From NCBI GenBank assembly GCA_958295905.1, contig OY282382.1, positions 5,812,367-5,876,366 on the forward strand: a DNA stretch of 64,000 nt. Reading direction: 5' to 3'. This DNA comes from an uncultured Vicinamibacterales bacterium. GTDB taxonomy: Bacteria > Acidobacteriota > Vicinamibacteria > Vicinamibacterales > UBA8438. Within the stretch, counting starts at the first letter, position 1; every line of letters begins with the position of its first letter. The position numbers were made by a program, and so were the translations under genes. Shown piece by piece: positions 1 to 25,214 of this stretch. Under the pieces are notes generated by a model, which was not told where the DNA came from, did not search any database, and worked only from the letters and a program-made list of their open reading frames with translations.

Positions 1-2026
1 CTGGAACCGCACTCAGGTCAGGGGCCTGATGCAGTCGCTCTATCGCAAGCATCCGACTGGTCACTTATTGGTCTGGCGCACTTACAAGCCATCGCTGGTG
101 CGCGGCGGAGAGGCGGCACGCGACGGACATTCGCTTTTGTTGCTCGACGGGCAGCAGCGCCTGACGACGCTCTACGTTCTGTTCAACGGCAAAGCGCCGC
201 GGTTCTACGAGGGCGAGTCGCTCTTCTTCGACCTTCACTTCAACCTCCAGACCGAGGAGTTCCGCTTCTGGCAGAAGTCGCGGATGGAGAACAACCCGGC
301 GTGGGTCGGCGTTCACGAGTTCCTGCGCGAGGGGCTGAACGCGCTGCTTGAACGGCTGGATCAGCTCGACGGCCAGCGGCGCACGATCATCCAGCAGAAC
401 TTGGCCCGGCTGAGCCGCCTCGACATGGTGCGCGATTACACCTACACCGTCGATCAGGTGTCTGGGGACAACTACCGTGTCGAGGAGGTCGTCGAAATCT
501 TCAACCGTGTCAACAGCAAGGGGACACCCCTCAAGAAGGCGGACCTCGCGCTCGCACACGTCTGCACCATCTGGCCGGAGGCGCGGGCGGAGTTGCGCGC
601 CTTCGCGTCCGGGACGAAGGAGCGCGGCTTCGACGTCGATCTCAACTTCCTGGTACGCTGCCTCGCGGGCGTGGCGACCAGTTCGGTGCTGCTTGAAGGG
701 TCGTTCCTCAAGACGCCCGCGGGAGTGTTGCAGGCCGCGTGGAAGATGATGCAGCCGGCGTTCGAACACTTGGTGAGCGTCCTGCGCCACGAGGCGTTCA
801 TTGGCGGCCTCGATGATCTCCCGACGAACTACGTGCTGGTGCCGGCCACCATCTATCTGGCGCGCCAGGGCGGACAGTTCCCGACTGACGCCGTCCGGCG
901 GCGCTTCATCCGCTGGATTCATCTCGCTGGCCTTTGGGCGCGGTATTCGGGGTCGGCCGAAACCAAGCTTCAGCAGGACGTGGCGCTGGTGGCCGGCCAA
1001 GACATCGACCCGACCCACGAACTGGAGGCCGCCATTCTGCGGGAGCGCGGCCGCGTCATCCTGGAGGAAGGTGACCTGGATCGGGCGCGCATCGACTCCG
1101 CGGTCGCCCGCCTGAGCCGCGTCGTGGCGCGACATCGAGATGCCCGCGACTGGTTCACGGGGGTCCGAATCTACGACGCGGTGGGGGGAAAGAGTCTCGG
1201 CGAAGAGCGCCACTACATCTTTCCGAGGAAGGTGCTGGAGCAGTTCGGGTTCGGCGACACGACGCGGATCAACGCAGTGGCCAACCGGGCCTTGCTTGGG
1301 CAGCGGGCGCCCAGGGAGTATCGGGGGGCGTCGCCCACGGAGTATCTGCCGGAGGTCGCCGAGAATCAGCCGGGCGCCCTGCGGGCGCAGTCGGTGCCGA
1401 TGGACCGTACGCTCTGGAAGCCCGAGCACTTCCTCGATTTCCTGGCGGCCCGCCGGCGGCTGCTGGCCCAGGCGATGAACGAGTTCATCGCTGGATGGGT
1501 CCCGGAGGCGAAGCGCGACCCGCGGGACGAACAGGGGGTGCGGGCGCTGCTCGCGGCAGGTGAGAGTGGGAGCCTGGAGTTCAAGTCCAGCCTGCGTTGG
1601 GACCGCCGGGTGGAGCAGGTCAACAAGGCAATCGAGCACATGGTGGTCAAGACGCTCGCGGCGTTCCTCAACGCGACGGGCGGCACACTGCTCATCGGCG
1701 TCGACGACGGCGGCATTCCCGTCGGGCTCGCCGCAGACTACGGAACGTTCAAGAAGAAGGACCGCGACGGGTTCGAGTCGCATCTGCAGGCGATCCTTGT
1801 TCGCGATCTCGGCGAGTCGGCGGCGTCGTCGTTCCTGACGGTCAACTTCCACGCGATCGACGGTTCGGACATCTGTCAGGTCACCGTCGAGCGGAGCGAC
1901 CACCCGATCTACGTGGAATACCAGAACGACGCGATCTTCTACCTGCGCGTCGGCAACGGGACCCGAGCGCTTCCGGTGGATGAGGCCGTCAAGTACGTCG
2001 GGCAGCGTTGGGGGAAGACGGCGTGA
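1..2026 (+). CDS. DUF262 (GmrSD/ParB-like) + HNH-like + C-terminal AlbA_2/Schlafen-like domain protein; 5' end lies outside the window
   Basis: ORF 29-2026. The frame stays open back to position 2 (WNRTQVRGL precedes the first Met). LLLLDGQQRLTTLYVL is the DUF262 signature. HYIFPRK...INAVANRALL resembles the His-Me tail of COG1479-type proteins. The C-terminal GESGSLEFKSSLRWD...LLIGVDDGG block matches the AlbA_2 pattern. Confidence 0.8.
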   Translation, partial: WNRTQVRGLMQSLYRKHPTGHLLVWRTYKPSLVRGGEAARDGHSLLLLDGQQRLTTLYVLFNGKAPRFYEGESLFFDLHFNLQTEEFRFWQKSRMENNPAWVGVHEFLREGLNALLERLDQLDGQRRTIIQQNLARLSRLDMVRDYTYTVDQVSGDNYRVEEVVEIFNRVNSKGTPLKKADLALAHVCTIWPEARAELRAFASGTKERGFDVDLNFLVRCLAGVATSSVLLEGSFLKTPAGVLQAAWKMMQPAFEHLVSVLRHEAFIGGLDDLPTNYVLVPATIYLARQGGQFPTDAVRRRFIRWIHLAGLWARYSGSAETKLQQDVALVAGQDIDPTHELEAAILRERGRVILEEGDLDRARIDSAVARLSRVVARHRDARDWFTGVRIYDAVGGKSLGEERHYIFPRKVLEQFGFGDTTRINAVANRALLGQRAPREYRGASPTEYLPEVAENQPGALRAQSVPMDRTLWKPEHFLDFLAARRRLLAQAMNEFIAGWVPEAKRDPRDEQGVRALLAAGESGSLEFKSSLRWDRRVEQVNKAIEHMVVKTLAAFLNATGGTLLIGVDDGGIPVGLAADYGTFKKKDRDGFESHLQAILVRDLGESAASSFLTVNFHAIDGSDICQVTVERSDHPIYVEYQNDAIFYLRVGNGTRALPVDEAVKYVGQRWGKTA

Positions 2027-2165: not shown

Positions 2166-2303
2166 AGGACATGCCACAACTTCGAGACCGGCGCACTTTT
2201 CGGCTGCGACGGCGTTCCCAGCAACCCTCCTGGACCGAGACTCTGCGCATGAATCCACATCACGGCCATCACAGCGCGGTCGCGTAGGGCGAAGCGTTCA
2301 CCG

Positions 2304-5300
2304 ATGCCTGCTCCACCAACCCTGACCGAAGGCCAGATCCTCAGCGGTTCTCTCTTCGACGAGCCGATGCGGGTGGAGACCGTCGCGGCGGCGGGTCCCG
2401 GCGGCTGGTCGCTCGGTCTGGTCGGCATGCGGTCCGAGCGCTTCCGGAAGGTCTCGCTCGGCGCGGCCGAACTGGCCGGACTGACGGTGCGCGACAGCGG
2501 CTTCCGGTACGACGGGGACGGCAGGCTGCTGCGGCTGGGAATGCAGGCCCACGCCCTCGGAATCGCCTGGGAGTTCGATCCGTATTTCGGACTGTCGGTC
2601 TCGCGCGTCGACCCGCTGCCGCACCAGTTGGAGGCGGTCTACGACCACCTGCTGAAGCTGGCGCGCGTCCGGTTCCTGCTCGCCGACGACGCCGGGGCCG
2701 GCAAGACGATCATGTCCGGGCTGCTGATCCGCGAGCTGCAGTTGCGCGGTCTGGCCGAGCGCATCCTGATCGTCGCCCCGTCGAACCTCGCGTTCCAGTG
2801 GCAGCGCGAACTACAGGAGAAGTTCGACGAGACGTTCGTCGTGCTGAGAGGCGGCGACCTGCGCGCGCAGTTCGGCGTGAACCAGTGGATGCGGCAGCCG
2901 AAGGTCGTGACCTCGCTCGACCTTGCGAAGCGCGACGACATCCTGCCCGGCCTGCGCCAGGCGCACTGGGACTTGGTCGTCGTGGACGAGGCGCACCGGA
3001 TGTCGGCGCGGGACGACTCGCACAAGAGCCAGCGGTACAAGCTGGGCGAGCTGCTGCGGGATTCGTCCGACCACCTGCTGCTGCTGACCGCGACGCCGCA
3101 CAAGGGCGACCCCGACAACTTCTCGCTCTTCCTCCAGCTTCTCGACCGCGACGCCTACGCCGACGTGCGCTCTATCCGGCAGGCGATGGACGCCGGGCGC
3201 GCCCCGTTCTACCTGCGGCGCACGAAGGAGGCGATGGTCCACTTCCCGGAGCGGGACGCGGAGGGGCGGTGGGTCACGCGGAAGATCTTCACGAAGCGCA
3301 TTCCCCGCACCGTGAACTTCGCCATCGACGGTCCGGAGTTCGAGCTGTACAGCGAGGTGACCCGGTTCGTGAAGCGCCAGAGCGCCCGCGCCGCCGCGGC
3401 CGGCGACGACCGGCGCGCCCGCGCCGTGGGCTTCCTGATGGCGCTGTACCAGCGGCGCCTGACGTCGAGCACGCGGGCCATCCGGCGCAGCCTGTCGAAC
3501 CGCGCCGACCGGTTGGAGCGCGGGCTCGCGCAGGCCGAGGATCTCGCGCGAACCGCGCCGCCGGACATCCCGAGCCCGGACGAACTCGACGAGATGGAGG
3601 ACCGCGACCGCGAACGGCTCGAGCGGTTGCTCGACGCGGTCACGCTGGCCGGGAACGCCGGCCGGGTGCGCGAGGAGATCGCCGAGCTGCGGGCGCTGGC
3701 CGTCAGGGCGCAGCAGGTCGAGCGCGCCGGCGTCGAGGCGAAGCTCGCCAAGCTCGAAGATCTGCTGCGCGGCCAGGGGTTCTTCGACCGGCCGGATCAG
3801 CGGCTGGTGCTCTTCACCGAATTCAAGGACACGCTCGACTACCTCATCGAGAGGCTCGAAACCTGGGGCTTCCGGGTGGCGAGCATTCACGGCGGCATGA
3901 AGCCCGGCGACCGCGACGAGCCGGGCACCCGGCTGCACGCCGAGCAGCAGTTCCGCGACGGCGCGGTGCAGGTGCTCGCGGCGACCGAGGCGGCGGGCGA
4001 AGGAATCAACCTGCAGGTCTCGAACGTCCTCTTCAACTACGACATCCCGTGGAACCCCAACCGCCTCGAGCAGCGCATGGGGCGCATCCACCGTTACGGC
4101 CAGGAGAAGGACTGCCTGATCTTCAACTTCGTCGCCACGAACACCATCGAGGGGCGCGTCCTCCAGCGCCTGCTCGACAAGCTGCAGGAGATTCGCGACG
4201 CGCTCGACGACGACGCGGTGTTCAACGTCGTCGGCGAAGTGCTGCCGGCGGCCCACGTGGAGCGCGTGCTGCGCGACTACTACGCGGGCCGGCTCGGCGA
4301 CGAGGACCTGGAGGAGCGCCTGTTGCGGAACGTCGACGAGGGGCGCTTCCGCAACATCTGCCGGAACGCCCTGGAGGGACTGGCGTCGAAGAAGCTGAAC
4401 CTGGAGATGCTGGTCGAGCGCCGCGCCCGCGCCCGCGAGCGCCGCGTGGTGCCGGAAACCATCGCCCGCTTCCTGCGCGACGCGGCGCCCCTGGTGCCGT
4501 TGAAGCTCGCCTTCGCCGGCAACTTGCCGCACACGTTCGAGCCCGCCCGCACGCCCGCCGCGCTGCGCCGCTACGAGCGCGAGCCCGACTGGCGGCTCCC
4601 GGCGCTGGCGGTCCGATATCCCCGCTGCACCACCGACCGCGACACCGCGCAGCGGCACGCGCTCGAATGGGTGACGCCGGGCCACCCGCTGTTCGAGGCG
4701 CTCCGCCGCCACGCGCGCGAGCAGGCCCTGGAACCACTCGCCCGCGGCGCCACCTTCCACTCGCTGGCGCACGACGCGCCGGTCCGCATCGACTGCTACC
4801 GCGCGCGGGTCGTCGACGGACTCGGGCGCGTCGCGCACGAGACGGTCTTCGCCCTGGCGCTGGCCGGCGACGGCGAGCCGCGGCGGTGCGAACCAAGCGT
4901 GCTCGGCGACCTGACGCCGGCCCCGGTCCCGGACGAGCTGCCGGCGGTCGCGCGCCGGCCCGAACCGACGGCGTGGATGCAGGAGCACGTTCTCCGGCCG
5001 CTTCTCGAGGCGACGCGCGCCGAACGCGTCGCCGAGGCCGGGCGCGTCGCGCAGCACGTGGAGCTCTCGCTGACAGAACTGCTGCAGCGGGCCGACGACG
5101 AGATCGGCCGCGCCGCCGCCGACGTGGAGGCGGGCCGCCAGGGCGCCGAGGGCCGGCTCGCGATGGCCGAAGCGCGGCACGAGGAGCTCTTCGTCCGCCG
5201 CGCGCGCCGCCGGGAGGAACTCGGACGGCAGCAGGCGCTCTCGCTCCAGGCGGTGGAGCGCCTGACCAGCGCGCTGGTCCTCCCGCACCCCGACCGCGGG

Positions 5301-5720
5301 ACCGCCGCGGTGAAGCGCCACCAGCCCGACCCGGCGACCGAGGCGGCGGCGATGCGCGTCGTCGTGGACCACGAGCGGGCCCGGGGGCGGCGCGTCGAGG
5401 ACGTGAGCGCGAAGAACCTCGGCTACGACGTGACCAGCCTCGACCCGGACTCGGGCGATCTGCGCCTCATCGAGGTCAAGGGGCTCGCCGCCCCCACCGG
5501 GACGATTCTGCTGACGCCCAACGAGCGCCGCGTCGCCGAAGACCGCCCCGACTGCTACTGGCTGTACGTCGTCACCGACTGCCGCCGGACCCCGGCGCTC
5601 CAGGAGCCCATCGCGAACCCGGCCCGGTTGCCTTGGCGCGAGGTGACGACGGTGCGGCACTACTATCTGAACGTCGGCGCGATTGACAGCGCGCGAAAGG
5701 AGAACGAGAAGAGGCCATGA
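2304..5720 (+). CDS. SNF2-family helicase with C-terminal DUF3883 / restriction-endonuclease-like domain
   Basis: 1138-aa ORF. Motifs LLADDAGAGKT (I), VVVDEAHRM (II), LLLTATPHKG (III), QRMGRIHRYGQ (VI). C-terminal RGRRVEDVSAKNLGYDVTSLD...IEVKG...CYWLYVV block is typical of DUF3883 helicases. Confidence 0.9.
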   Translation: MPAPPTLTEGQILSGSLFDEPMRVETVAAAGPGGWSLGLVGMRSERFRKVSLGAAELAGLTVRDSGFRYDGDGRLLRLGMQAHALGIAWEFDPYFGLSVSRVDPLPHQLEAVYDHLLKLARVRFLLADDAGAGKTIMSGLLIRELQLRGLAERILIVAPSNLAFQWQRELQEKFDETFVVLRGGDLRAQFGVNQWMRQPKVVTSLDLAKRDDILPGLRQAHWDLVVVDEAHRMSARDDSHKSQRYKLGELLRDSSDHLLLLTATPHKGDPDNFSLFLQLLDRDAYADVRSIRQAMDAGRAPFYLRRTKEAMVHFPERDAEGRWVTRKIFTKRIPRTVNFAIDGPEFELYSEVTRFVKRQSARAAAAGDDRRARAVGFLMALYQRRLTSSTRAIRRSLSNRADRLERGLAQAEDLARTAPPDIPSPDELDEMEDRDRERLERLLDAVTLAGNAGRVREEIAELRALAVRAQQVERAGVEAKLAKLEDLLRGQGFFDRPDQRLVLFTEFKDTLDYLIERLETWGFRVASIHGGMKPGDRDEPGTRLHAEQQFRDGAVQVLAATEAAGEGINLQVSNVLFNYDIPWNPNRLEQRMGRIHRYGQEKDCLIFNFVATNTIEGRVLQRLLDKLQEIRDALDDDAVFNVVGEVLPAAHVERVLRDYYAGRLGDEDLEERLLRNVDEGRFRNICRNALEGLASKKLNLEMLVERRARARERRVVPETIARFLRDAAPLVPLKLAFAGNLPHTFEPARTPAALRRYEREPDWRLPALAVRYPRCTTDRDTAQRHALEWVTPGHPLFEALRRHAREQALEPLARGATFHSLAHDAPVRIDCYRARVVDGLGRVAHETVFALALAGDGEPRRCEPSVLGDLTPAPVPDELPAVARRPEPTAWMQEHVLRPLLEATRAERVAEAGRVAQHVELSLTELLQRADDEIGRAAADVEAGRQGAEGRLAMAEARHEELFVRRARRREELGRQQALSLQAVERLTSALVLPHPDRGTAAVKRHQPDPATEAAAMRVVVDHERARGRRVEDVSAKNLGYDVTSLDPDSGDLRLIEVKGLAAPTGTILLTPNERRVAEDRPDCYWLYVVTDCRRTPALQEPIANPARLPWREVTTVRHYYLNVGAIDSARKENEKRP

Positions 5721-6124
5721 GAACCCACAACTTGTTCATCAGCCACTCTTGGACGTACGCAGATCAGTACGACCGACTTGTAAACCTCTTGTCGGAAAGA
5801 AGCTACTTCAGTTTCAAGAATTATTCAGTCCCGAAGGACGATCCAATTCACAACGTGGGAACGGACGCCCAACTGCGCGAGGCGATCCGCCGCCAGATGG
5901 TTCCATGCGGGGTGGTTCTCATTCTCGCGGGTGTCTATGCCAGCTACAGCAAGTGGATAGACATAGAAATAAAGCTCGCAGAAGGTTTCCAGCAAGGGAA
6001 ACCGATCATCGCCATTGAGCCGTGGGGAAGCCAGCGAACTTCCGCGCGCGTCAAACAAGCGGCCGACCGAATCGTGAAATGGAACACCGAGAGCGTCGTG
6101 AAAGCCATCAGGGAGCTTGCATGA
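5717..6124 (+). CDS. TIR-like domain protein (DUF1863 / ThsB-like)
   Basis: 135-aa ORF. Its ATG overlaps the helicase stop (ATGA). N-terminal NLFISHSWTYADQYDRL and the short alternating strand/helix layout match my memory of TIR-like DUF1863 proteins. Locally lower GC than its neighbours. Confidence 0.65.
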   Translation: MRTHNLFISHSWTYADQYDRLVNLLSERSYFSFKNYSVPKDDPIHNVGTDAQLREAIRRQMVPCGVVLILAGVYASYSKWIDIEIKLAEGFQQGKPIIAIEPWGSQRTSARVKQAADRIVKWNTESVVKAIRELA

Positions 6125-6576
6125 CGAGCAACTCCACGCAAAACGAGCTACTGGAGATTTACAAGCTCCACACGGAGCTCGCCGACCGCGTGAGCCAGCG
6201 ACGAGAGGGAGCCAATCGGCTGTACGTCAGTCTGCTCGTGGGACTGATGGTGTTCGGTGCGACGCTGCTGCGCTACGGTACCGGCGATGTCCCGGCCAAG
6301 ATCGTGCTATGCGCCCTGGGTACCATCGGCGCGTTGCTGTCGGTCTCCTGGTACATCGTCATCCGGTCGTACCGTCAGCTCAACACCGGGAAATTCAAAC
6401 CCCTGCATGAACTTGAGGAAAAGCTGGCCTACCCGTTCTTCACCCGCGAATGGGAGCTGCTGGGCGAGGGCCGGGACCGACGGCGCTACTGGAAGCTGTC
6501 CGTCGTCGAGACCAGCCTGCCGTGGATCTTCTTCGCACTGTTTCTCGGCATGACGATTCTGGCGTTCTTCCAGTGA
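6121..6576 (+). CDS. Small 3-TM membrane protein (candidate effector, SLATT-like layout)
   Basis: Met at 6121 inside ORF 6022-6576, overlapping the TIR-like stop (ATGA). Three hydrophobic helices: LYVSLLVGLMVFGATLL, IVLCALGTIGALLSVSWYIVI, LPWIFFALFLGMTILAFF. Confidence 0.65.
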   Translation: MTSNSTQNELLEIYKLHTELADRVSQRREGANRLYVSLLVGLMVFGATLLRYGTGDVPAKIVLCALGTIGALLSVSWYIVIRSYRQLNTGKFKPLHELEEKLAYPFFTREWELLGEGRDRRRYWKLSVVETSLPWIFFALFLGMTILAFFQ

Positions 6577-6617
6577 AAAGGCGATCATGAGGCGGAAGAC
6601 ATCCGTGCATACCTGCT

Positions 6618-7030
6618 GTGGGGCGGGACTTGCCGATGGTTCGTGAACCGGCGCCGCTCGGGGAGGACCGCGTGAGCCGCAAGGGCGCCGGAGACGACCG
6701 GCAACGTCACGGCGGATCGACCCTCGACCCGCGCACGTTGGACGAGATCATCCGACGCGTCGTTGAAGTTGCGCAACCGGAGCGGATCATCCTGTTCGGG
6801 TCGGCCGCCCGCGGGAAATGACGCGCCGTAGTGACGTGGATCTGCTGATTGTCGCCGATGGCGCGGATGCTCTCGAGCTGATGTCCCGGATCTACGGCCG
6901 CTGGCGGGGCGTAGGCGTCGCGGTCGATGCGCGGGTGGTTTCAGCCGCCGACGTGGCGCGCTACCACGGCAGCCATGCGCTCATCAGGCCGGCTCTGCGT
7001 GAGGGAAGGACCGTGTATGAATCCGCCTGA
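6618..7030 (+). pseudogene. MNT-type nucleotidyltransferase, frameshifted copy
   Basis: ORFs 6618-6821 and 6818-7030 together equal the intact copy at 9342-9740. There is a single G deletion in the run at ~6813-6816 (cgcgggaaatg versus cgcggggaaatg). LFGSAARG...DVDLLIV is the NTase motif. Confidence 0.85.
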
Positions 7031-7075
7031 GCGTCCGCCCCCCGGAGCCGTCGTCCGCTGGGTCGAGGAGCAACG

Positions 7076-7145
7076 GTGATCCCGCGCGAGTGCAAGCGCC
7101 TCGCCGAGGTGGACTTCCCCATCTCCGTCGTGCCGAAGCACGCGG
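7076..7145 (+). pseudogene. Fragment 2 of the DUF1156 methyltransferase gene (first ~23 codons)
   Basis: VIPRECKRLAEVDFPISVVPKHA shows 1 mismatch in 70 nt versus 9786-9855. It runs into unrelated sequence and a TAA a few codons later. Confidence 0.85.
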
Positions 7146-7177
7146 GTCGCATCCGTGTGGGATAATCCGTCGGTCCG

Positions 7178-8551
7178 ATGTTGCTGCGACTGTCCGTCAA
7201 GAACTTCAAGAGCATCCGCGAAGCGCACGTCCGCTTCGGGCCCTTCACCTGCTTCATCGGCCACAACGGCGTCGGCAAGAGCAACCTGTTCGACGCCATC
7301 CATTTCCTCGGCGCGTTGACCGACCGGGACATTGCCGCGGCGGCCGCCGAGGTGAGACGCGCCAGCGACGGAGGCGGCTCGCCGCTTGACCTGGTGTTCG
7401 GCCGCGACCCCGAGCGCCGGATCGAGCTGTGCGCGGACATGGTGGCACCGCCGCGGGTCGAGGACGACTTCGGCCAGACGGCGACACCGAGCACGACGCT
7501 TCTCACCTACACGATCCGGCTGCAGTATCAGCCGCAGTCGGACCGCTTGCTGGTGGAGCACGAGAACCTGACCCACGCCAAGCTGGAGGACTACCGGAAG
7601 TTCGTCGGATTCGACTCGTCGAAGGACTTCAAGAAATCGGTCGCCCTGGGCGTGCGGCGCGGCGGACCGCTGATTTCGACGACCGGGGACCGGATTCGGC
7701 TTCACGGCGACGGCGGAAGCCGGGGGCGGCCCGCGCCGGTCGGCAGGTCGCCGTTGACGGTCGTCGGCGGCACCAACACGTACGACTACCCGACCGTGCT
7801 GGCCGCGAAGCGGGAGATGGCGTCCTGGCGGATACTCCATCTCGAGCCGAGTGCGATGCGGACCCCCGACACCCGCTCCGCACCTCCTCACGTCTCGGCG
7901 TCGGGCGGCCACATGCCGGCTACGCTCCATGCACTGGTTACGAGAAATCCTGACGCGGCCGCTGAAATCCTCTACCGGCTCCGCCAGCTCAACTCGGACA
8001 TCGTCGAACTGGGGGTCCACACCGACGACGTTCGAGACCAGCTTGCGCTGAGGGCGCGTGTCCCCGGCGTGGACAACTGGCTGTACGGCCGCTCCCTTTC
8101 CGACGGCACGCTGCGATACATCGCCCTCGTGCTGATGCTGGTGGACGTCCAGGATTGCGCCGTGCTGTGCATCGAGGAGCCGGAAAACGGCATTCACCCG
8201 TCTCGGGTTTCCCACCTGACGGAGTTGTTGCGGGAATACGCAGTCGACGTCAACGACGCCGTCGGGGCCGACAACCCATTGCGTCAAGTCGTGCTCAATA
8301 CGCATTCTCCCGAGGTGGCTCGGCAGCTTTCCTTCGGCGATCTCGTATTCGTCGAACGGGCGATCACGAAGCGGGAAGGGCCGATCAGCACGTTTCGGCC
8401 GATCGCGGGCACGTGGCGAACCAAACTGCGCAACGGATCGCCGTTGAACGCGGAATCCATGAACCGGCAGGCGGTGGTCGATTTCATCGGCGGCTCGCCG
8501 GTCAACCCGGAGCTCGGTCAGTTGCGGCTCGAGTTCGGATCCGCGAAGTGA
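7178..8551 (+). CDS. ABC/SMC-type ATPase (AAA_15/AAA_21-like)
   Basis: 457-aa ORF. Walker A GHNGVGKSN, Walker B/D-loop LLCIEEPENGIHP, H-loop-like VLNTHSP. Confidence 0.8.
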   Translation: MLLRLSVKNFKSIREAHVRFGPFTCFIGHNGVGKSNLFDAIHFLGALTDRDIAAAAAEVRRASDGGGSPLDLVFGRDPERRIELCADMVAPPRVEDDFGQTATPSTTLLTYTIRLQYQPQSDRLLVEHENLTHAKLEDYRKFVGFDSSKDFKKSVALGVRRGGPLISTTGDRIRLHGDGGSRGRPAPVGRSPLTVVGGTNTYDYPTVLAAKREMASWRILHLEPSAMRTPDTRSAPPHVSASGGHMPATLHALVTRNPDAAAEILYRLRQLNSDIVELGVHTDDVRDQLALRARVPGVDNWLYGRSLSDGTLRYIALVLMLVDVQDCAVLCIEEPENGIHPSRVSHLTELLREYAVDVNDAVGADNPLRQVVLNTHSPEVARQLSFGDLVFVERAITKREGPISTFRPIAGTWRTKLRNGSPLNAESMNRQAVVDFIGGSPVNPELGQLRLEFGSAK

Positions 8552-9147: not shown

Positions 9148-9220
9148 ACGAAAGCGAGAGACCGGCGCAGAAAGTTGACGGGAAGGACACACGACGGCGC
9201 TTGAGCCCTTGTATTACTGC

Positions 9221-9310: not shown

Positions 9311-9341
9311 CGGCGAACAACGCTGAGGCCAAGCTCTGCCG

Positions 9342-9740: not shown

Positions 9741-9785
9741 GCGTCCGCCCCCCGGAGCCGTCGTCCGCTGGGTCGAGGAGCAACG

Positions 9786-14194: not shown

Positions 14195-14195
14195 G

Positions 14196-17246: not shown

Positions 17247-17930
17247 TTATCCGTCTCCGTGAGGTGGTCTCAGTTCTGGACAGTTCGAGGGCTTCGGCAA
17301 TGTATTCCGGTTGCCCGTCACCCCCTCGCGGTCGCCGTCTCCCGCGCAGACCGCCCGTCGCCAAGGTCGGCGCTACTCGTGTTCAAAAGGGGATGCCATC
17401 CCGTTCGGAGAGTCCCTTATTCTTGACGCCTTCCCGATCATCGTGCGCCCCTGTTCCCGCCCCCGGTCCAACCTTGGCACGCCCGCCCGACAACGCGGAT
17501 TGGCCCGATTCCGCCCCGTCGCAGCGCGCGACGCCCGGATTCGCGGCACGGTAGCCCACGCGAGACGAGATCGTCAAGGTCGAACGGCGGGCCCAGGGCG
17601 CACGTCGAGCGGGTTTACTCGTCCAGATACAACCACGAACCCGCCCGGCGTGGTAGACTACTCACGGCTTCCCGGGCAAGGGAACGGAGCGCCCAGAACT
17701 CCCTCTGCCGTAATCGGGTCAGGCGCGCCCGCGGGAAGCCTCTTCCTCATTCCCCCTCGGCGCGGTAGAACGACACGAGCGACGGCGAAGCCGGGCACCC
17801 TCGCCGCCGCGCAGGTCGGCCGCCTGCGCCCGAAACGTCTCGGAGTGCTCGCGCACCGCTGGATACAAGACGCCGCGGTTCGCACCCGCTGGAGAATGGC
17901 ACGCTTTTCGCGGCGCACCACCACGGGCTG

Positions 17931-18914
17931 CTACACCGACCAGTCCGATAGACGACCGAACAGATCGGCCGCCGTGTCGCACTCGATGATCCAGTCGCCG
18001 ACCTGCTCCAAGCGGTCCGGATCCGCAACATGCTCAAGCGCGGCGGCCAACCGCTGCGCTGCTGCGGCGTCGAACTTCCGCGCAGCCTGACGGCACAGCA
18101 ACGCACGCTGGCCCTGCTCGATTCCCTGCCCCCTGCCTTCTTCCCGGCCCTGCTCGACCCACTCGGCCGTCCACTCCTGAACGGTTTCGGCCAACATCGC
18201 CCTCACCTCCTCAAGCCGCGGCAGCGGCCCCGACACCGAGCTGCGGAACCGCCGCGGCAGCAGCACCTGCGTCGCCCATTCGCTGAACGCCGCCGTCAGC
18301 TCCTCATCATCCTGCTTGTGCAGCAGTTCGGTCAACGCCTCCAGCAACGCCGCCGCCCGCACCCGGTCCAGATTCGTCTCCAGCGCGATGAGTGCCGACA
18401 CGAGATTGCCGGACGGCAGATCCGAACCGCCGAGCCGGCGCTCGTCCAGCAGAAAGTACCGCTGCGACGGCTGATACCGCGCCAACGCCGCCCCGCCGCC
18501 CGACGCGATCAGCGCCGACACGTCCGCCGGCGCCGTCCACGGCCGACGGCCGTTGTAGATCACGACGGGCAGCACCGGCGGCAGGCCGCCGTGCTCACGG
18601 AGCACTCCGTCCGCGATCAACTTCTGATACAGCAGCCCCGTGTACGTCAGCATGCGGACCGCCATCGAGCGGTCGACCGCCGACTGGAACTCCAAGAGCA
18701 GCACGACGTACAGCCACCGATCGTCCTTGAAGCGGACGCGCCACACCAGGTCGCCGTGACGTTGGCGCAGGTCGTGGCTGACGAAGCTCGCCGGCAGCGG
18801 CGTCAGCGACGCGAAGTCGAGGTCGCCGCTCCAGTCGCGGGCGGCGAAGCCGCGCAACAGGTCCTGGACCATCCGGGGGCGCGAGAACAGGCGTTTGTAG
18901 GCAGGATCATCCAT
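17931..18914 (-). CDS. Rpn-family recombination-promoting nuclease / PD-(D/E)XK putative transposase
   Basis: 327-aa ORF. YKRLFSRPRMVQDLL...DLVWRV...YVVLLLEFQS matches the YhgA/Rpn pattern. Confidence 0.8.
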   Translation of the reverse strand: MDDPAYKRLFSRPRMVQDLLRGFAARDWSGDLDFASLTPLPASFVSHDLRQRHGDLVWRVRFKDDRWLYVVLLLEFQSAVDRSMAVRMLTYTGLLYQKLIADGVLREHGGLPPVLPVVIYNGRRPWTAPADVSALIASGGGAALARYQPSQRYFLLDERRLGGSDLPSGNLVSALIALETNLDRVRAAALLEALTELLHKQDDEELTAAFSEWATQVLLPRRFRSSVSGPLPRLEEVRAMLAETVQEWTAEWVEQGREEGRGQGIEQGQRALLCRQAARKFDAAAAQRLAAALEHVADPDRLEQVGDWIIECDTAADLFGRLSDWSV

Positions 18915-19099
18915 GAATTGCGCCGATCATACCGCGCCAAGGGCGTCCGAACGAACACCGATAGCCAGCGGCCCGCCGCCGGCACACGGATCCGCCAGCG
19001 GCGGGCTCACCGAAAATCTGCGCTCAGGAATCGACACGCCAGCCCTCATGTACTACACTAGCGGGCATGGCGATGGGCACGGTGCGCAACGGGTCGCAG

Positions 19100-19560
19100 C
19101 AATCGACACGGGTCGCGACGGCGGATCTGCCGCAGAGCGCAGGCATCCCTTCGACGAGCGGCTGAACCGGATCCTGGAGGCGGCAAGTTCGACGCGTTCG
19201 TCGAATGCCTGTGCGGGCCGTTCTACGCGATGATTGGACGAGGCGAGTCTGGCTCCAAGACGCTACTTCCGATTGCTGCTCATCGGGTACTTGGAAGAGC
19301 TGGACTCCCAAACGAGGCATCGCGGCGCGGACGGAGGATTCGCTGAGCCTACGGGGCGTTTCTGCGTTGCCGGAGCGGGCGGCGTATCCGCCGTGTGCGG
19401 GCTGCTCGGGCCATTCTGGACCTGGACACCGGTCTGGAGCGGCTCTCGACGCGATTCCGGCCCCATTCGGCGCGGGTCGCCGCGCCATCGAGCCACCGAC
19501 CCCTTGAGCCGTCTGAACATCAGGAACTTCCACCTCGGGTTGGTGAGGCGCAACCCTTGA
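19100..19560 (+). pseudogene. Degenerate IS5/IS1182-like transposase N-terminal (DUF772-like) remnant
   Basis: Across three frames it reads PFYA..GRGESG / SLAPRRYFRLLLIGYLEELDS / SLSLRGVSALPERAAYP / ILDLDTGLERL. This resembles the InsH N-terminal domain broken by frameshifts. Confidence 0.4.
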
Positions 19561-20220
19561 ACGACATGAATACGCTGACCACGCTGGATAATGCCACGCC
19601 GATGGATCGCTGGCGCGCTCTGGGCGCCCCCTGCCTGAATTGCGGAGGAAGACGATCGGCAGCGAAACGAAGACACGGATCCAGAAGCCACTAATCATTC
19701 CCGAAGTATGCAGAGCCCCGAGCCAGAGCGGCCGTCGCCGACAGAACCCCGACCGAGCGTGATCAGACGCGGGCCCAAGTACGGTGGTCTGGCGCAAACC
19801 GCGGAAGGATACGGGACGATCGGGATCGACAGACCGGGCGTCCCGCCGATGCGGGTCCAAGTACAATGAATGGCGATACAACCCGAGATACGGCCCAAGA
19901 GGAACGGCGGCGACGACCTTTATCGGTCGACGCAGTCTCAGTGAGACCGAGCAATGAAACTCGAACGTGGGACGTAAAGCGGGGCGGAACGATACGGTCG
20001 CCCGCAAGTTGCTGATAGGATATCAGTTACAGCGCCGCCGCACGTTTCAAGGAAACAGTGCGAACAGCGCGCCGTCGCAGGCGGACGCCAAGCGTTCGAC
20101 GACAGCGGCAGGCGGGACTGGTACCCAGGAGCGGTATAATCGCGGCTGCGGGCTCGACGGCGGGGCGATTGTCCGGACGTGCGGGAGTTCGCCGGCGGGA
20201 AAGGAAGCATGGCTAGGACC

Positions 20221-20447
20221 GCGGACGCGCGGGGGGTGCCGCCGGGCGCGCCAACGCTCTCGGCCGCGTGTTCGCCGCAGCGGGCGCGCCGGTGCTGGTG
20301 CTGTTCGACGAGGTGCTCAACTTCGTCGCCCCCACCACCAGCAGATGGCCGATGCGTCCCAGCAGGCCCGCGGCACGCTGGCGATGCTCGCGCAGTGGAT
20401 ACCGTGGACGCACCGGGACGGCTTCAGGCCGGCGCGCACCGAGCCGC
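20221..20447 (+). pseudogene. Remnant of a second DUF499 gene with internal deletion and frameshift
   Basis: VFAAAGAPVLVLFDEVLNFV aligns with 22940-23010. QQARGTLAMLAQWIPWTHRDGFRPARTEP aligns with 23462-23555. About 430 bp between these blocks is missing. Confidence 0.8.
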
Positions 20448-20527
20448 ATCGTGAGGTCCGACGTTGCCCCGGTCGAATCCTGCCGGCTCGGTTCATGTAA
20501 AAGATCAGTGCGGGAGGAAATGGTTCC

Positions 20528-21654
20528 ATGACCGCGGCGAAGATAGAATCCGTGCGCATCCGGGGGTTCCGGTCGCTCGCCGACGTGGAGCTGTCGAATC
20601 TCCGGAACGCCAACGTCCTGATTGGAGCCAACGGCTCCGGAAAGTCCAACTTCATCCGTTTCTTCGAGATGATGAGCTGGATGCTGCGGTCTCGCCGGCT
20701 CGGAGAGTTCGTTGAGTTGCAGGGCGGCGCCGACGACCAGTTGCACAAGGGCAACCGCGTTACTCCACGCATGGAGGCCGAGCTGGCCCTGCGCACCGAG
20801 ACCGGCCGGAACGATTACCGCTTCGCCCTGGCTCACGCCCACCCCGACCGCTTCGTTTTCACCGAAGAGGCGTACCGTTTCAACGCCAGCGACCGTCCGG
20901 GGGAAGCGCCTTGGCAGCACGCTCCGAGCGGCCGGTCGGAAGCGGCGATCGTCGACATGGCGCAGACGCCGCCGCCTGGCGTCAACCCGACGACCGCGAG
21001 GGTCGTGGTCCATCTCTTGAGGAACTGCGCCGTCTACCAGTTCCACGACACGTCCGACACGTCGCATTTCAAGAAGCGGTGGGACGCGGACGACAACAAC
21101 TACCTTCGCACCCACGGCGGGAACCTTGCCGCCGTCCTGCACCGACTGGAGCAGGAAGATCTCCAGCGGTTCGATCTGATCTCGCGGCATATTCGGCGCG
21201 CGCTGCCGGTCTTCGACCGCTTCCAGATCGACGTCAGCTACGGCAAGGTGTCGTTGCGATGGAAAGCCGCCGGAACGGACAAGTCGTTCGGTGCGCACCT
21301 CACGTCCGACGGGTCGCTCCGTTTTTTCGCGCTGGTCACCTTGTTGAATCTTCCGCCGGAGATGTTGCCGAACGTGTTGCTGCTGGACGAGCCGGAGCTC
21401 GGCCTGCACCCGGCCACCGTGGCGCTGGTCGGCGGCATGATCAAGGCGCTCTCGGTCGACCGGCAGATCATCGTGGCGACGCAGTCGCCGCTGCTCGTCG
21501 ATGCGTCGATCTCGAGGAAATCGTCGTCTTGGATCTTGACGATGGACGCACCACGCTCCACCGGCCGGATGCGGACGGGTACCGGCGCTGGCTCGACGAA
21601 GGCTTCATGCCGGGTGAGATGTGGCAGAAGAACCTCATCGGAGGGCGCCCGTGA
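20528..21654 (+). pseudogene. ABC/SMC-type ATPase, frameshifted
   Basis: Walker A GANGSGKSN, Walker B LLLDEPELGLHP, VATQSP. An 8-bp near-duplication (tcgtcgat gcgtcgat) at 21495-21510 shifts the frame. The true C-terminus DLEEIVVLDLDDGR...GGRP continues in the frame of ORF 20911-21654. Confidence 0.8.
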
Positions 21655-22288
21655 CACGTCTGGCCGTGTCGGTGGAAGGACAGACCGAAGAGGAATTCGT
21701 CAAGCGGGTTCTTGCCGGTCACTTGAGGGAAAGGCGTGTAGAGTCGACGCCGATCGTGCTCGGCCGGGCTCGGGGCAGATCTGGCGGCGGAAACGTGTCT
21801 TCGGATCGACTCGTGTCGGAAATGGTCTGGTTGCTGCAGTCCTTCGATGCCGCGACTTCATTGGTCGACTTCTACGGGTTTCGCCACCGGGGAGACCGAT
21901 CGGTCGAGATCTGGAGGCGCACTTGCGCGAGGAGATCGCCCGGCAAATCGGTCCCCGTCGAGACGAAACGAAGGTGGTGCCGTACGTGCAGAGGCATGAG
22001 TTCGAAGGACTGTTGTTTTCGAATGTCGAGGTCTTCGCGGAACAGGTCGATTTTCCTGTCACGTGCCGGGGCGAGCTGCAGGCCGTTCGCGCGCAGTTCA
22101 CGACTCCCGAGGACATCAACGACGATCCGCAGACCGCGCCGAGCAAGCGCATAGCGAACGTGATCCCAAGGTACAGGAAGCCTCTTCATGGTCCCTTGCT
22201 GGCTGGGAAAATCGGCCTGGACAGGATCCGCGCGGAGTGTCCGCGATTCCACGACTGGGTGATGCGTCTGGAATCCCTGGCGGACTGA
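21651..22288 (+). pseudogene. DUF4276 family protein, frameshifted
   Basis: GTG overlaps the ATPase stop (GTGA). N-terminal LAVSVEGQTEEEFVKRVL. The C-terminal half VPYVQRHEFEGLLFS...PEDINDDPQTAPSKRI...RAECPRFHDWV is in another frame, with the shift at ~21885-21915. Confidence 0.8.
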
Positions 22289-22400: not shown

Positions 22401-25214
22401 ATGGCGCTAGAGCCCTGGTACAAGGTCGCGCTCCCCCGCGAGGAGGTCCGCGAAGGCCGTTCGTTCAATCCGGACGAGTTCGCCATCGCCCTGGAGCAGG
22501 TGGTCGGCGGGACGGCGCCGGCCGACTACCGCGACCCGGAGGCGTTCTTCGCCCGCACCTGCTTCACCCGCGCGCTGCGCGGGCACGCCGGGATGGTGCT
22601 GCGGCGGCTGGCGGGGAAGACGGCGAACACGTCGCCGGTGATGACGCTGGTGACGCAGTTCGGCGGGGGGAAGACCCACACGCTGACCGCGCTCTATCAC
22701 TTGGTGACGGCCGGCGAACGGGTCGCGGACCTGAACGACATCTCTGCGCTGCTGCACGAGGCGGGGCTGCCGGCCGCGCCCGCGGCCCGGGTGGCGGTGT
22801 TCGTCGGCAACGCCTGGGACCCGCGGGAGGGACGCGAAACGCCGTGGGTCGACGTCGCCCGGCAGCTCGCGGGCGACGAGGGCGCGGCGCTGCTCGGCGC
22901 GGACGCGCGGGGGGCGCCGCCGGGCACCGACGCCCTCGGGCGGGTGTTCGCCGCGGCGGGCGCGCCGGTGCTGGTGCTGTTCGACGAGGTGCTCAACTTC
23001 GTGAACCGCCACCGGCGGATGGCCGATGCGTTCCACGCCTTCATCCAGAACCTGACCGTCGCGATGACCGGGACCACCCACGGGGCCGCGGTCATCAGCC
23101 TGCCGCGCAGCCAGGTCGAGATGTCCGACTTCGACCTGGCGTGGCAGGACCGCATCACGAAGGTGGTCCGCCGCGTCGCCAAGGATCTGCTGGCGAACGA
23201 CGAAGCCGAGGTCAGCGAGGTGGTCCGGCGGCGGTTGTTCGACGCCATCGGCCCGGAACGCACCCGGAAGAAGGTGTCGCGGGCGTACGCCGACTGGTGC
23301 TTCGAGCGGCGCACGCAGTTGCCGCCGGAATGGACGCTGGTCGACAGCGCGGCCACCGAGTCCAGGGCGCGCGACCGTCTGCGGGCGCGTTTCGAGGCGT
23401 GCTACCCGTTTCATCCCGCCACGCTGTCCGTCTTCCAGCGCAAGTGGCAGATACTGCCGCACTTCCAGCAGACCCGCGGCACGCTGGCGATGCTCGCGCA
23501 GTGGATCTCGTGGGCGCACCGCGACGGCTTCAGGCGCGCGCGCACCGAGCCGCTGATCACGCTCGGGTCGGCGCCGCTCCAGGTCTCCGAGTTCACGAGC
23601 GTCGTCCTCGGCCAGCTCGGCGAGCCGCGGCTGGCCGCCGCCATCGACGCCGACGTCGCCGGCGAGCAGGCGCACGCGCGGGCGCTCGACGCCGACACGA
23701 AGGGCGCGCTCCGCGACGTCCACCGCCGCGCCGGCACGACGATGCTGTTCGAGTCGTCGGGCGGACAGGTCGACAGGGTGGCGCATCTGCCCGAGCTGCG
23801 CTTCGCGCTCGGCGAGCCCGCCATCGATACGACCTCGGTCGACACCGCGGCGGCCAGGCTGGAGGAAAGGGCCTACTTCCTGCGCCGCGTGGGAACGGAC
23901 GGGTTCCGGATCGACTACCGGCCGACGATCAAGAAGGTGGTCAACGACCGCCGCGCGTCGCTCGACGAGGAAAACGAGATCCGGCCGGCCGTGCGCGGCT
24001 TGGTCGAAGAGAACTTCGACCGGGGCGCAAGCCTTCCCCGCATCTGTTTTCCCGCCGACGCGGCCGTGATTCCGGACACCCCCAAGCTGACGCTGGTGGT
24101 GATGGACCCGGAGGTGGCGTGGACCGGCGCGGCCGGCGACGATGTCCGGGCGCGGATCGCGCAGTGGACCCGCGCCCGCGGCACCGCGCCCAGACTGTAT
24201 CCGGGCGCGCTGATCTGGGCGGTCGGAAAACCCGGGCGCGCGCTGCGGCAGAAGGTGGAACAGTGGCTCGCGTGGAAGCGGGTCGCCGCCGAGGTGTCCG
24301 CGGGGGCCCTCGGCCACGAGTTCGACGGCAATGACCACAAGGAGCTCCGCACGAAGGTCGGGGAAGCGGGCGACACGGCGCGGGAAGAGGTCTGGGGAAG
24401 CTACCGCTTCGTGGTGCTCGCCGACGCCTCGGGACCGGACGGGCTGAAAGCCATCGATCTCGGCGTCGGGCACTCGAGCAGCGGCGAGAATCTCTGCGGG
24501 CGGGTCGTCGCCGCGCTCAAGTCGAGCGCCCTTCTCAACGATTCGATCGGAGCCCGATACCTGGCGCGCAACTGGCCGCCGGCGCTGAAGGCGGGCGGCG
24601 CCTGGCCGCTCGTCAGCCTGCGCCAGAGCTTTCTCGACGGCTCGCTGACGCGGCTGATCGATCCGGACGCGGTGCTGCGCCGCAAGGTCGTGGAGTGGGT
24701 CGGCGACGGCGAGTTCGGACTCGGCTCGGGACGGGGCGCGGACGGCCGCTTCGAGCACGTGTCGTTCCAGGAAACGGTGGCGGCGGAGGACGTCATGTTC
24801 GAGTCGGACGTCTACCTGCTGACCAGGACGGCGGCCGAGAGCGCGAAGGCGACGCCCGAGCCGGACCCGGGGCCGGCGGAATCGCAACCCGGAGCGGCGG
24901 CCGTGACCGGTGGCCTGTTCACCCCCGCCGCGAGTCAGGAGGCTGCCCCGACGCCTCGCCCCCCGGCGCCTTCCGAGCCGCCCGCCGACCACACGATCCG
25001 TGTCCACGGGAAGATTCCGGCGGAGACCTGGAACCGTGTGGGCGCCCGGCTGCTGCCGAAACTGCGCGGGAACTCGGGCCGCGATCTGCAGGTGACGGTC
25101 TCGTTCGAGCTGACGGCGGGCGCCCCCGGCGCCGACGCGCTGCTCGCCGACCTGCGCCGGATCGTCGACGACCTCCGACTCGACGGGTCGCTCAGGATCG
25201 ACACGGACGCGTAA
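22401..25214 (+). CDS. DUF499 (COG1483-like) ATPase
   Basis: 937-aa ORF. MALEPWYKVA.PREEVREGRSFNPDEFAI...LVTQFGGGKTHTL matches the typical DUF499 N-terminus and P-loop. Confidence 0.85.
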   Translation: MALEPWYKVALPREEVREGRSFNPDEFAIALEQVVGGTAPADYRDPEAFFARTCFTRALRGHAGMVLRRLAGKTANTSPVMTLVTQFGGGKTHTLTALYHLVTAGERVADLNDISALLHEAGLPAAPAARVAVFVGNAWDPREGRETPWVDVARQLAGDEGAALLGADARGAPPGTDALGRVFAAAGAPVLVLFDEVLNFVNRHRRMADAFHAFIQNLTVAMTGTTHGAAVISLPRSQVEMSDFDLAWQDRITKVVRRVAKDLLANDEAEVSEVVRRRLFDAIGPERTRKKVSRAYADWCFERRTQLPPEWTLVDSAATESRARDRLRARFEACYPFHPATLSVFQRKWQILPHFQQTRGTLAMLAQWISWAHRDGFRRARTEPLITLGSAPLQVSEFTSVVLGQLGEPRLAAAIDADVAGEQAHARALDADTKGALRDVHRRAGTTMLFESSGGQVDRVAHLPELRFALGEPAIDTTSVDTAAARLEERAYFLRRVGTDGFRIDYRPTIKKVVNDRRASLDEENEIRPAVRGLVEENFDRGASLPRICFPADAAVIPDTPKLTLVVMDPEVAWTGAAGDDVRARIAQWTRARGTAPRLYPGALIWAVGKPGRALRQKVEQWLAWKRVAAEVSAGALGHEFDGNDHKELRTKVGEAGDTAREEVWGSYRFVVLADASGPDGLKAIDLGVGHSSSGENLCGRVVAALKSSALLNDSIGARYLARNWPPALKAGGAWPLVSLRQSFLDGSLTRLIDPDAVLRRKVVEWVGDGEFGLGSGRGADGRFEHVSFQETVAAEDVMFESDVYLLTRTAAESAKATPEPDPGPAESQPGAAAVTGGLFTPAASQEAAPTPRPPAPSEPPADHTIRVHGKIPAETWNRVGARLLPKLRGNSGRDLQVTVSFELTAGAPGADALLADLRRIVDDLRLDGSLRIDTDA

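Follow-up and report, generated by a model that had tools for sequence, protein, structure and literature searches.

The Hma (helicase–methylase–ATPase) system was defined by Payne et al. (2021, PMC8565338) and is found in 26 phyla. The underlying restriction–modification (RM)-like operon was first noted by Anantharaman et al. (2013, PMC3710099), and the same triad has been renamed the Type-1 DUF499-centred BREX-related (BR) system (NAR 2026, PMC12839542). The locus described here lies within about the first 25 kb of a 64,000-nt stretch, hereafter the window, from an uncultured Vicinamibacterales bacterium (GCA_958295905.1, OY282382.1, positions 5,812,367–5,876,366, forward strand). The region is read as one intact Hma system with other defence cassettes nested in it, in an array that has grown by recombination, a reading given a probability of roughly three in four.

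Nesting of genes in Hma operons is widespread. Embedded genes are present in 931 of 1,485 Hma systems (62.7%), and the recurrent ones have been named Hma-embedded candidates (HEC), and of nine that were assayed seven had anti-phage activity (Payne et al. 2024, bioRxiv 10.1101/2024.01.29.577857). Cloned alone, HEC-03 (ATPase plus PIN) and HEC-05 (the same as BrxU) are active and HEC-01 is not; just 0.7% of Septu systems lie inside Hma loci (10.1101/2024.01.29.577857). A second study finds insertions of defence genes in 66.5% of hma operons and describes the region as a hotspot; in it, HmaA of Halomonas meridiana suffices for defence against T4, by way of its helicase and NOV_C nickase, and Halomonas HmaB has no RM-like effect (PMC11232893). 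The origin of embedding is left open in the literature, and the two papers that deal with it make no mention of duplications, fragments or recombination. Both the identity of the system and the nesting of defence genes are already published; the phenomenon is ordinary, and the present locus is an extreme example of it. New here are scars made of hma gene ends, empty-site comparisons and four alleles of the HmaB recognition segment, which together give a modest lead on mechanism.

Gene families were assigned with Pfam, PADLOC and NCBIfam models, and RNA genes were sought with Rfam and tRNA scans. Coding frames were picked by third-position GC content (GC3), because the window has a G+C content of about 70%. 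The comparison set comprises 81 related Hma loci, onto each of which the window's proteins were mapped; counts of gene order and synteny are limited to 52 of them, in which hmaB has 9 kb or more of flank on each side. The closest named genomes are metagenome-assembled genomes (MAGs) of Vicinamibacterales (Acidobacteriota), assembled from long reads. Homologs of the window's HmaB number in the thousands, and one identical protein (P0001) is known.

The Hma triad

The three hma genes share a strand and follow the order A, B, C:

2304–5720, plus strand: hmaA, SNF2-family helicase with a C-terminal NOV_C (former DUF3883) PD-(D/E)xK nuclease
9786–12827, plus strand: hmaB, DUF1156 N6-adenine methyltransferase
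22401–25214, plus strand: hmaC, DUF499 AAA+/STAND-type ATPase

These are the very open reading frames (ORFs) singled out in the original prediction, with exact coordinates, and their GC3 of 0.87–0.94, the highest in the island, marks them as true frames. Model searches recover all three predicted families, as well as DUF262 and AlbA_2. The label of the methylase was correct, but those of the other two genes had been exchanged: the DUF499 ATPase had been placed at 2304–5720 and the SNF2/DUF3883 helicase at 22401–25214. All three genes are open over their full length, with intact catalytic motifs.

HmaA matches Pfam SNF2-rel_dom (5e-16), Helicase_C (3e-23) and, at residues 1013–1099, NOV_C (4e-20), and the PADLOC HmaA model at 1e-168. 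It carries the motifs GAGKT, DEAH and TAT and a nuclease D...EVK signature at 1033–1059. HmaC matches Pfam DUF499 (1e-10) and PADLOC HmaC (1e-98 over residues 1–823), with a P-loop GGGKT at 88–92 and a Walker B motif LVLFDE at 191–196; its protein is 96–100% identical to those of loci L001 and L083. HmaB matches Pfam DUF1156 (5e-22) and PADLOC HmaB (9e-110), with motif I (VVDPFAGGG) at 139 and motif IV (DPPY) at 546.

Just before DPPY, HmaB residues 380–545 (nt 10923–11420) form a hypervariable segment of low GC3. Among five close, near-identical loci the segment is only 37–50% identical and comes in four alleles, between flanks that are 98–100% (N-terminal) and 86–99% (C-terminal) identical. 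The window's allele has its best matches in distant taxa (L056, 68%; L003, 63%). From this pattern in the sequence, the segment looks like a target-recognition domain that is being swapped, as in type I RM and BREX PglX.

The locus resembles the described Hma systems in its three families, their order and strand, and its nested defence genes (PMC8565338). With Type-1 BR it shares the DUF499 ATPase, the DUF1156 N6-methyltransferase with an internal recognition insert and the Swi2/Snf2 helicase with a C-terminal PD-(D/E)xK domain. It differs in that the window's HmaC lacks the N-terminal HEPN domain present in more than half of Type-1 BR taxa. Structure models of Type-1 BR feature a TUDOR domain, a wHTH triad and an RRM (PMC12839542). 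Halomonas HmaA combines SNF2 and NOV_C as here, and in the Halomonas locus Septu occupies the hmaA–hmaB interval. The PLD-helicase/DUF1156/DUF499 anti-phage system (NCBIfam NF042962-4) was rejected, with scores far below the cut-offs and a helicase that has NOV_C, not PLD. DISARM (DrmD) and BREX (BrxH, PglX) were likewise rejected: the helicase and methyltransferase match the Hma models better, and other DISARM and BREX genes are absent. PDB sequence searches with HmaB, HmaC and the embedded 8xMP protein returned no solved relatives.

Co-occurrence of the triad, as had been supposed, is borne out by synteny: the order A>B>C on one strand is kept in 48 of the 52 loci, with variable contents between the genes. 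Intervals shorter than 300 bp make up 13% of the A–B and 10% of the B–C intervals, and the median amount of embedded DNA is 4.1 kb. The window's 13.6 kb (4,065 + 9,573 bp) is at the top of the range, and its B–C interval is the largest seen, in a range censored by 10-kb flanks. Nesting recurs in most of the 81 loci, across many phyla.

Nested cassettes

The two intervals of the triad, and the DNA at its left edge, carry the following features; the STAND gene is split by an insertion sequence (IS):

1..2026, plus strand: GmrSD-like gene, DUF262 with C-terminal AlbA_2 (Pfam GmrSD_N 5e-17, SLFN_AlbA_2 4e-16)
5717–6124, plus strand: TIR gene of ThsB type (Pfam ThsB_TIR 1e-16; PADLOC ThsB 1e-12)
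6121–6576, plus strand: 8xMP membrane protein, 151 aa (Pfam 8xMP 4e-34; three hydrophobic segments by hydropathy)
7178–8551, plus strand: ABC ATPase of HEC-01A type, copy 1 (Pfam AAA_21, AAA_15; PADLOC HEC-01A 4e-75)
8548–9147, plus strand: HEC-01B-type partner (TOPRIM/DUF4276-like), copy 1 (PADLOC HEC-01B 2e-16; no Pfam match)
9342–9740, plus strand: intact MNT nucleotidyltransferase (Pfam Polbeta, NTP_transf_2; PADLOC PDC-S09 3e-10)
12848–14194, plus strand: ABC ATPase of an ATPase+PIN pair (Pfam AAA_15, AAA_21; PADLOC NsnB 6e-42, its best match, and HEC-03 model 6e-29)
14196–14669, plus strand: PIN-domain partner (Pfam PIN 7e-5, barely above the gathering score; no PADLOC match)
14757–17246, minus strand: STAND/AAA_16 NTPase gene split by the IS, N-terminal part 16425–17246, C-terminal part 14757–15176 (Pfam AAA_16, nSTAND1)
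15174–16463, minus strand: IS4-family IS, transposase 15201–16361 (Pfam DDE_Tnp_1 and DUF4372)
17931–18914, minus strand: Rpn/YhgA-like (Transposase_31) recombination-promoting nuclease (Pfam Transposase_31 7e-26; NCBIfam Rpn below cut-off)
20528–21654, plus strand: HEC-01A-type ABC ATPase, copy 2, frameshifted (PADLOC HEC-01A 2e-98)
21651–22288, plus strand: DUF4276 (HEC-01B) partner, copy 2 (Pfam DUF4276 over two frames; PADLOC HEC-01B 8e-42)

Pseudogenes included, about seven ORFs are nested between hmaA and hmaB and about nine between hmaB and hmaC. Fourteen embedded genes or pseudogenes lie on the hma strand, the exceptions being the STAND gene, its IS and Rpn. Most of the cassettes have a counterpart in the Payne 2024 catalogue: HEC-01 twice, a HEC-03-like pair, a HEC-05-like gene and PDC-S09. 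It is therefore right to see the triad as a scaffold for other immunity modules, a phenomenon already published under the name of embedding. The intervening genes listed in the original prediction are all present (a TIR gene paired with a membrane-protein gene, MNT genes, three ABC-ATPase modules, a PIN gene, an IS and Rpn), as is the DUF262/AlbA_2 gene at the left edge. It had missed the STAND/AAA_16 NTPase gene that the IS interrupts, the DUF4276/TOPRIM genes that accompany two ATPases, the frameshifts of the third ABC-ATPase module and the truncated copies of hma gene ends.

The published census, in line with the operational rule of PADLOC, accepted at most three embedded genes per interval, each hma gene once and no pseudogenes (10.1101/2024.01.29.577857). 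Such a rule serves detection and does not define the system biologically, and the window falls outside it with its roughly 7 + 9 ORFs and its hma fragments. The locus would probably be missed or excluded by such a census because of the ORF limit and the exclusion of repeated or pseudogenised hma genes. Compared with the loci of Payne 2024, the window has an opposite-strand block, an IS, pseudogenes, truncated hma copies and more embedded ORFs.

The DUF262 gene is adjacent to the triad rather than embedded in it, because it lies upstream of hmaA; its homologs occupy the hmaA–hmaB interval in eight loci and the hmaB–hmaC interval in three. It has DGQQR at residue 49 and matches PADLOC HEC-05 (1e-25 over residues 34–487), and its open frame reaches base 2, so that the 5′ end lies beyond the window edge. 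BrxU/HEC-05 combines DUF262 with DUF1524; the window gene has an extra C-terminal AlbA_2, which is not part of BrxU, and no Pfam match to DUF1524, its ERHYIFP stretch resembling the DHIxP motif.

The TIR+8xMP pair, also found in L001, L002 and L083, recalls Thoeris in that a ThsB-type TIR gene stands beside a presumed effector gene. It is not canonical Thoeris, because the 8xMP protein has no SIR2, SLOG, Macro or other ThsA domains; that protein is presumed to be the partner or effector of the TIR gene. PADLOC has no model matching the 8xMP protein and no system model for the pair, and a literature search on the 8xMP family gave nothing relevant.

At least 12 related loci, from several phyla, have an MNT gene immediately upstream of hmaB. 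These loci belong to Vicinamibacterales, Latescibacterota, Nitrospirales, Binatia, Dehalococcoidia and Pseudomonadales, and in them, as in the window, the MNT gene stands alone, without a HEPN partner. MNTs normally neutralise HEPN domains. A HEPN domain is carried by many Type-1 BR ATPases (PMC12839542).

The three ABC-ATPase modules start at 7178, 12848 and 20528. Both HEC-01 copies have the HEC-01 architecture (ABC ATPase followed by a TOPRIM-like partner), with both genes frameshifted in copy 2. HEC-01-type ATPases are found in either interval among the related loci. The ATPase of copy 1 is present in L001, L082 and L084, not in L083; its partner is 96% identical in L082 and L084 and absent from L001. 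The ATPase+PIN pair follows hmaB in 20 of the 81 loci, the PIN gene travelling with the ATPase in relatives; the architecture is that of HEC-03, while the ATPase itself scores better against NsnB. The Rpn gene is 99% identical in L083.

Scars at hma gene ends and sister loci

Comparison of the window with itself, including tblastn with the hma proteins, reveals truncated copies of hma genes flanking the cassettes:

2023–2099, plus strand: hmaB 5′ stub, the first 77 nt of hmaB, 93.5% identical to 9786–9862 (tblastn: HmaB residues 1–26, 85%)
6631–7145, plus strand: direct repeat copy 1, frameshifted MNT plus the first ~70 nt of hmaB (7076–7145)
9337–9855, plus strand: direct repeat copy 2, intact MNT plus the start of the true hmaB
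9222–9270, plus strand: hmaA 3′ stub, 49 nt, 89.8% identical to 5635–5683
20220–20447, plus strand: hmaC fragments, two joined internal pieces, 87% identical to 22898–23035 and 92% to 23465–23553

The first stub begins at the GTGA that overlaps the stop of the DUF262 gene, with no coding signal downstream. The two copies of the direct repeat are 97.3% identical over 519 nt, and copy 1 is collinear with the true MNT–hmaB junction of L083. The hmaA 3′ stub is the same fragment, in the same place, in L082 and L084, and the hmaC fragments are common to L083. Among the cassette boundaries examined, element ends occur only on the IS; the others are copies of hma gene ends or plain intergenic spacers. 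A 51-nt match (84%) between 2101–2149 and 17889–17939 joins the DNA after the first hmaB stub to the 3′ end of Rpn.

Four same-clade loci (L001, L082, L083 and L084) have HmaA proteins 94–100% identical to that of the window and long stretches of DNA that are 96–99% identical, and between such flanks cassettes are present in one locus and absent from another. L083 reads hmaA–TIR–8xMP–MNT–hmaB–ATPase–PIN–STAND(minus)–Rpn(minus)–[hmaC fragments]–HEC-01A–DUF4276–hmaC; compared with the window it lacks the IS and the first HEC-01 cassette. L082 and L084 carry, after different A–B content, the module [hmaB 5′ stub]–HEC-01A–HEC-01B–[hmaA 3′ stub]–MNT–hmaB. Window positions 2216–7145 match L083 positions 5142–10070 at 98.4%. 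Judged from these alignments, the window is the exact product of a crossover that joined the genuine start of hmaB in a locus of L083 type to the hmaB stub in one of L084 type.

The sister loci also bear remnants of their own. Upstream of hmaA in L082, L083 and L084 (e.g. L083 3311–5054) lies a decayed hmaA remnant, made of the leader and two internal pieces and called as a 92–106-aa "Helicase_C (weak)" ORF; an AAA_21/AAA_15 ATPase cassette and then the full hmaA follow. The full hmaA of L083 seems to be frameshifted at residue 203/204.

End scars are not confined to this clade. Self-alignment of each locus finds direct copies of hma gene ends, 44–235 nt long and outside the genes, in 19 of the 81 loci, from several phyla. 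The end most often copied is the hmaB 5′ end (eight loci), followed by the hmaA 3′ end (five), the hmaB 3′ end (four), the hmaA 5′ end (three) and the hmaC 5′ end (two). A gene terminus is involved in 24 of 26 repeats, against about 12% expected under a null model that is uniform along the gene; the whole-gene duplication of L021 was left out. Crude as this null is, the pattern stands out clearly. L027 has a copy of about 180 nt of the hmaB 3′ end on the far side of its ATPase+PIN pair, and in L031 two such copies, of 119 and 100 nt, separate hmaB from the pair.

Two further loci are of interest in their own right. In L023 (Latescibacterota) a perfect 70-nt repeat of the hmaC 5′ end (14901–14970 and 16361–16430) flanks a HEC-01A-type gene just upstream of hmaC; the insertion looks very recent and akin to the events seen in the window. 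L021 (Gemmatimonadota) carries two full-length tandem hmaB genes (6472–9458 and 10001–12976; 88–90% DNA identity) between hmaA and hmaC, a possible intermediate of a route from tandem copies to collapse.

Disrupted genes add a second class of before-and-after comparison. The IS transposase belongs to the IS4 family (NCBIfam, 289 bits against a cut-off of 115). The element ends in imperfect 15-nt terminal inverted repeats (CACTAGTGTCCCACA and CACTTCTGTCCCACA) and is flanked by a 9-bp target-site duplication (TCCGCCCGT) at 15165–15173 and 16464–16472. Excising it with one copy of the duplication restores the STAND reading frame (...SFTGGLPVLAHEIG), matching L002. L083 has the empty site, and the STAND orthologs of L083 and L084 are intact at 396 aa. 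The gene lies on the minus strand of the hmaB–hmaC interval in the window and on the plus strand of the hmaA–hmaB interval in L002.

Three genes in redundant copies are frameshifted. HEC-01A copy 2 has a 1-nt deletion (TT to T) near 21505 relative to the intact genes of L010, L007 and L083, and its HEC-01B partner a 1-nt deletion (GG to G) near 21908; the second HEC-01 pair of L083 is intact (376 + 212 aa). MNT copy 1 (6636–7030) has its residues in two frames, together with a 3-nt deletion and about a dozen substitutions. L001 and L007 carry independent, different lesions in the same HEC-01 cassette.

Between Rpn and the hmaC fragments, about 1.2 kb (18915–20105) is presumably decayed DNA: it has no GC3 coding signal, no Pfam or Rfam match and no resemblance to the related loci, though L083 has it too. 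A Pfam scan of ten ORFs in 17264–20530 and an Rfam scan of 1–27000 gave no matches. Comparison of 17247–20527 with related loci by tblastx returned high-GC noise, and a stricter rerun gave only the hmaC fragments and pieces shared with L001.

Origin, function and meaning of the array

By analogy with the family literature, HmaB would methylate host adenine at a motif set by its variable segment, HmaC would scan or recognise DNA, and HmaA would restrict unmarked DNA through its helicase and PD-(D/E)xK nickase. The two intervals of the triad serve as an accretion site for TIR+8xMP, HEC-01 (twice), MNT, ATPase+PIN, the STAND NTPase and Rpn. The comparison with sister loci shows that the array grew by homologous recombination between different Hma loci, with truncated hma ends as the joints. 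An L083-type locus (hmaA–TIR–8xMP–MNT–hmaB) was joined to an L084-type module inside the 70-nt hmaB stub, leaving the 519-bp repeat; later, the IS4 element split the STAND gene, and the redundant MNT and second HEC-01 copy gained their apparent frameshifts. The stubs themselves may arise when tandem or recombined Hma loci collapse and each redundant hma gene loses one of its copies; the stub-bounded module may be the junction of two tandem loci from which an hmaB, an hmaC and an hmaA have been deleted. Elsewhere, HEC-01-type cassettes usually lie just downstream of hmaB, which fits such a tandem-junction origin. The stubs would then serve as portable homology for further exchange.

The broader proposal, that hma-end stubs act as portable homology arms by which cassettes move and Hma loci telescope through homologous recombination, making a self-diversifying immune locus, is evenly balanced between right and wrong. 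It would explain why the embedded genes are co-oriented and have no mobile-element ends.

Several points weigh against the reading of an intact, recombination-built Hma array. The function of the triad is taken from homologs, of which only Halomonas HmaA has been tested experimentally (PMC11232893). Coordinated expression of hmaC is not assured, because the gene lies 9.6 kb from hmaB beyond the opposite-strand block, and L082 and L084 have no hmaC within 10 kb. The origin of the stubs by tandem collapse is a reconstruction, not an observation, and the enrichment of gene termini is measured against a simple null. The conserved hmaA/TIR overlap and the recurrent MNT upstream of hmaB leave room for some functional coupling. 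Finally, all three frameshifts are 1-nt contractions of 2–4-nt G or T homopolymers and could be errors of long-read assembly, the relatives being long-read MAGs.

That last point supports an alternative in which long-read homopolymer errors make intact genes (the second MNT copy and the second HEC-01 pair) look like pseudogenes. This is rather unlikely: all three frameshifts fall in the 2.2 kb of redundant copies and none in the ~19.7 kb of other island coding DNA (p ~0.001, uniform model), the MNT copy has its additional 3-nt deletion and substitutions, and the lesions in the HEC-01 cassettes of L001 and L007 are independent and different. A more sweeping alternative holds that the split triad is a decaying relic and the locus a graveyard of several collapsed Hma copies. 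The stubs of hmaA, hmaB and hmaC would suit it, as would the IS-disrupted and frameshifted genes, about 1.3 kb without recognisable coding, the opposite-strand block that separates hmaC from hmaB, the lack of a nearby hmaC in L082 and L084 and the apparent frameshift in the hmaA of L083. It is nevertheless unlikely, given three full-length open hma genes with intact catalytic motifs and the island's highest GC3; proteins 94–100% identical to those of relatives, next to a diversifying HmaB recognition segment, are the pattern expected of an active RM-like system. Very unlikely is an ordinary defence island to which conventional mobile elements (IS, integrases, transposons) brought the cassettes and in which nesting is incidental. 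One IS4 element with clear ends and a target-site duplication, the Rpn gene and a DruA–Tn5-like transposase gene 4 kb to the right would fit such an island. Against it, tRNA scans and Pfam scans find no tRNA and no integrase in the window, the other examined boundaries are hma-end copies or plain spacers, and nesting recurs in most of the 81 loci across many phyla.

The original prediction had asked whether the embedded genes are accessory sensors or effectors of Hma and had taken the 4-nt start/stop overlaps as a sign of co-expression. Co-strandedness of the fourteen embedded genes and pseudogenes, the overlap of the TIR start with the hmaA stop (ATGA, 5717), kept in L083, and the MNT position upstream of hmaB would all be consistent with co-transcribed, triad-dependent components, as would the published back-up systems PrrC in EcoprrI (type I RM) and BrxU in BREX, likewise defence genes nested on the same strand in a methylation system. 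All five predicted overlaps exist, but the GTGA at 2023 begins the hmaB stub and not a new gene. Those at 6121 and 8548 (GTGA, HEC-01B start over ATPase stop) lie within cassettes, 21651 joins two frameshifted genes, and 5717 alone links a scaffold gene to an embedded one. About 5.5 kb of the B–C interval (14757 to ~20200) is not in a plus-strand operon, because of the minus-strand block at 14757–18914 and about 1.3 kb of decayed DNA. Co-expression does not follow from overlaps of this kind, and a promoter and terminator scan, with sites no more frequent than in shuffled sequence, was uninformative on operon structure.

Functional integration of the embedded genes is, on balance, improbable. 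The content and position of cassettes differ between loci with near-identical hma genes, cassettes shifting interval or strand or vanishing in relatives that are 96–99% identical; the STAND gene is on the opposite strand to the hma genes in the window and on the same strand in L002. The hma genes here are intact, in contrast to embedded genes that are disrupted or frameshifted. Cloned by themselves, HEC systems give defence, and no more than 0.7% of Septu systems lie in Hma. PrrC is held inactive by EcoprrI and BrxU complements BREX, and in both cases the coupling rests on experiments; the comparative evidence here is against obligate coupling. Most likely the cassettes are hitch-hikers on Hma that work as autonomous back-up systems, and not Hma subunits.

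Beyond the right end of hmaC come a Uma2 gene, then mutY (HhH-GPD + NUDIX_4) and further genes that seem unrelated to defence, so the island is taken to end near 25.2–26.2 kb. The Uma2 putative endonuclease (PADLOC PDC-S03) lies right of the locus in the window (25577–26191, minus strand) and left of it in L001 (1–490, plus strand), the other flanks being different. At 29540–31885 (minus strand) a 781-aa ORF fuses an N-terminal DruA (former DUF4338; Druantia-associated) to an IS4/Tn5-type transposase (Tnp_DNA_bind, DDE_Tnp_1, Dimer_Tnp_Tn5; NCBIfam IS4, 304 bits). Other repeats of the window include a family of ~175–190 nt at 55555–57418, with copies at 51978–52166 (86–92% identity, both orientations), a tandem array of about three units at 56834–57418 and a 34-nt piece again at 59197–59230. 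There are also a ~64-nt tandem repeat at 27317–27627, a 132-nt direct repeat (99%) at 37078–37209 and 37432–37562, and a 165-nt repeat (89%) at 41615–41778 and 55333–55496.

For the Hma family, stubs of hma gene ends, found here and in about a quarter of the related loci, offer a testable mechanism for the nesting of defence systems, and sister loci at 96–99% identity provide before-and-after states for cassette gain, the IS hit and gene decay. Census rules that allow no more than three embedded genes and no fragments will miss the most heavily loaded Hma loci. If the proposed mechanism is true, direct repeats such as the 519-bp pair around HEC-01 would allow cassettes to loop out and re-insert reversibly, a cassette array without a recombinase, and the stubs together with rapid swapping of the HmaB recognition segment would make Hma a self-diversifying immune locus.

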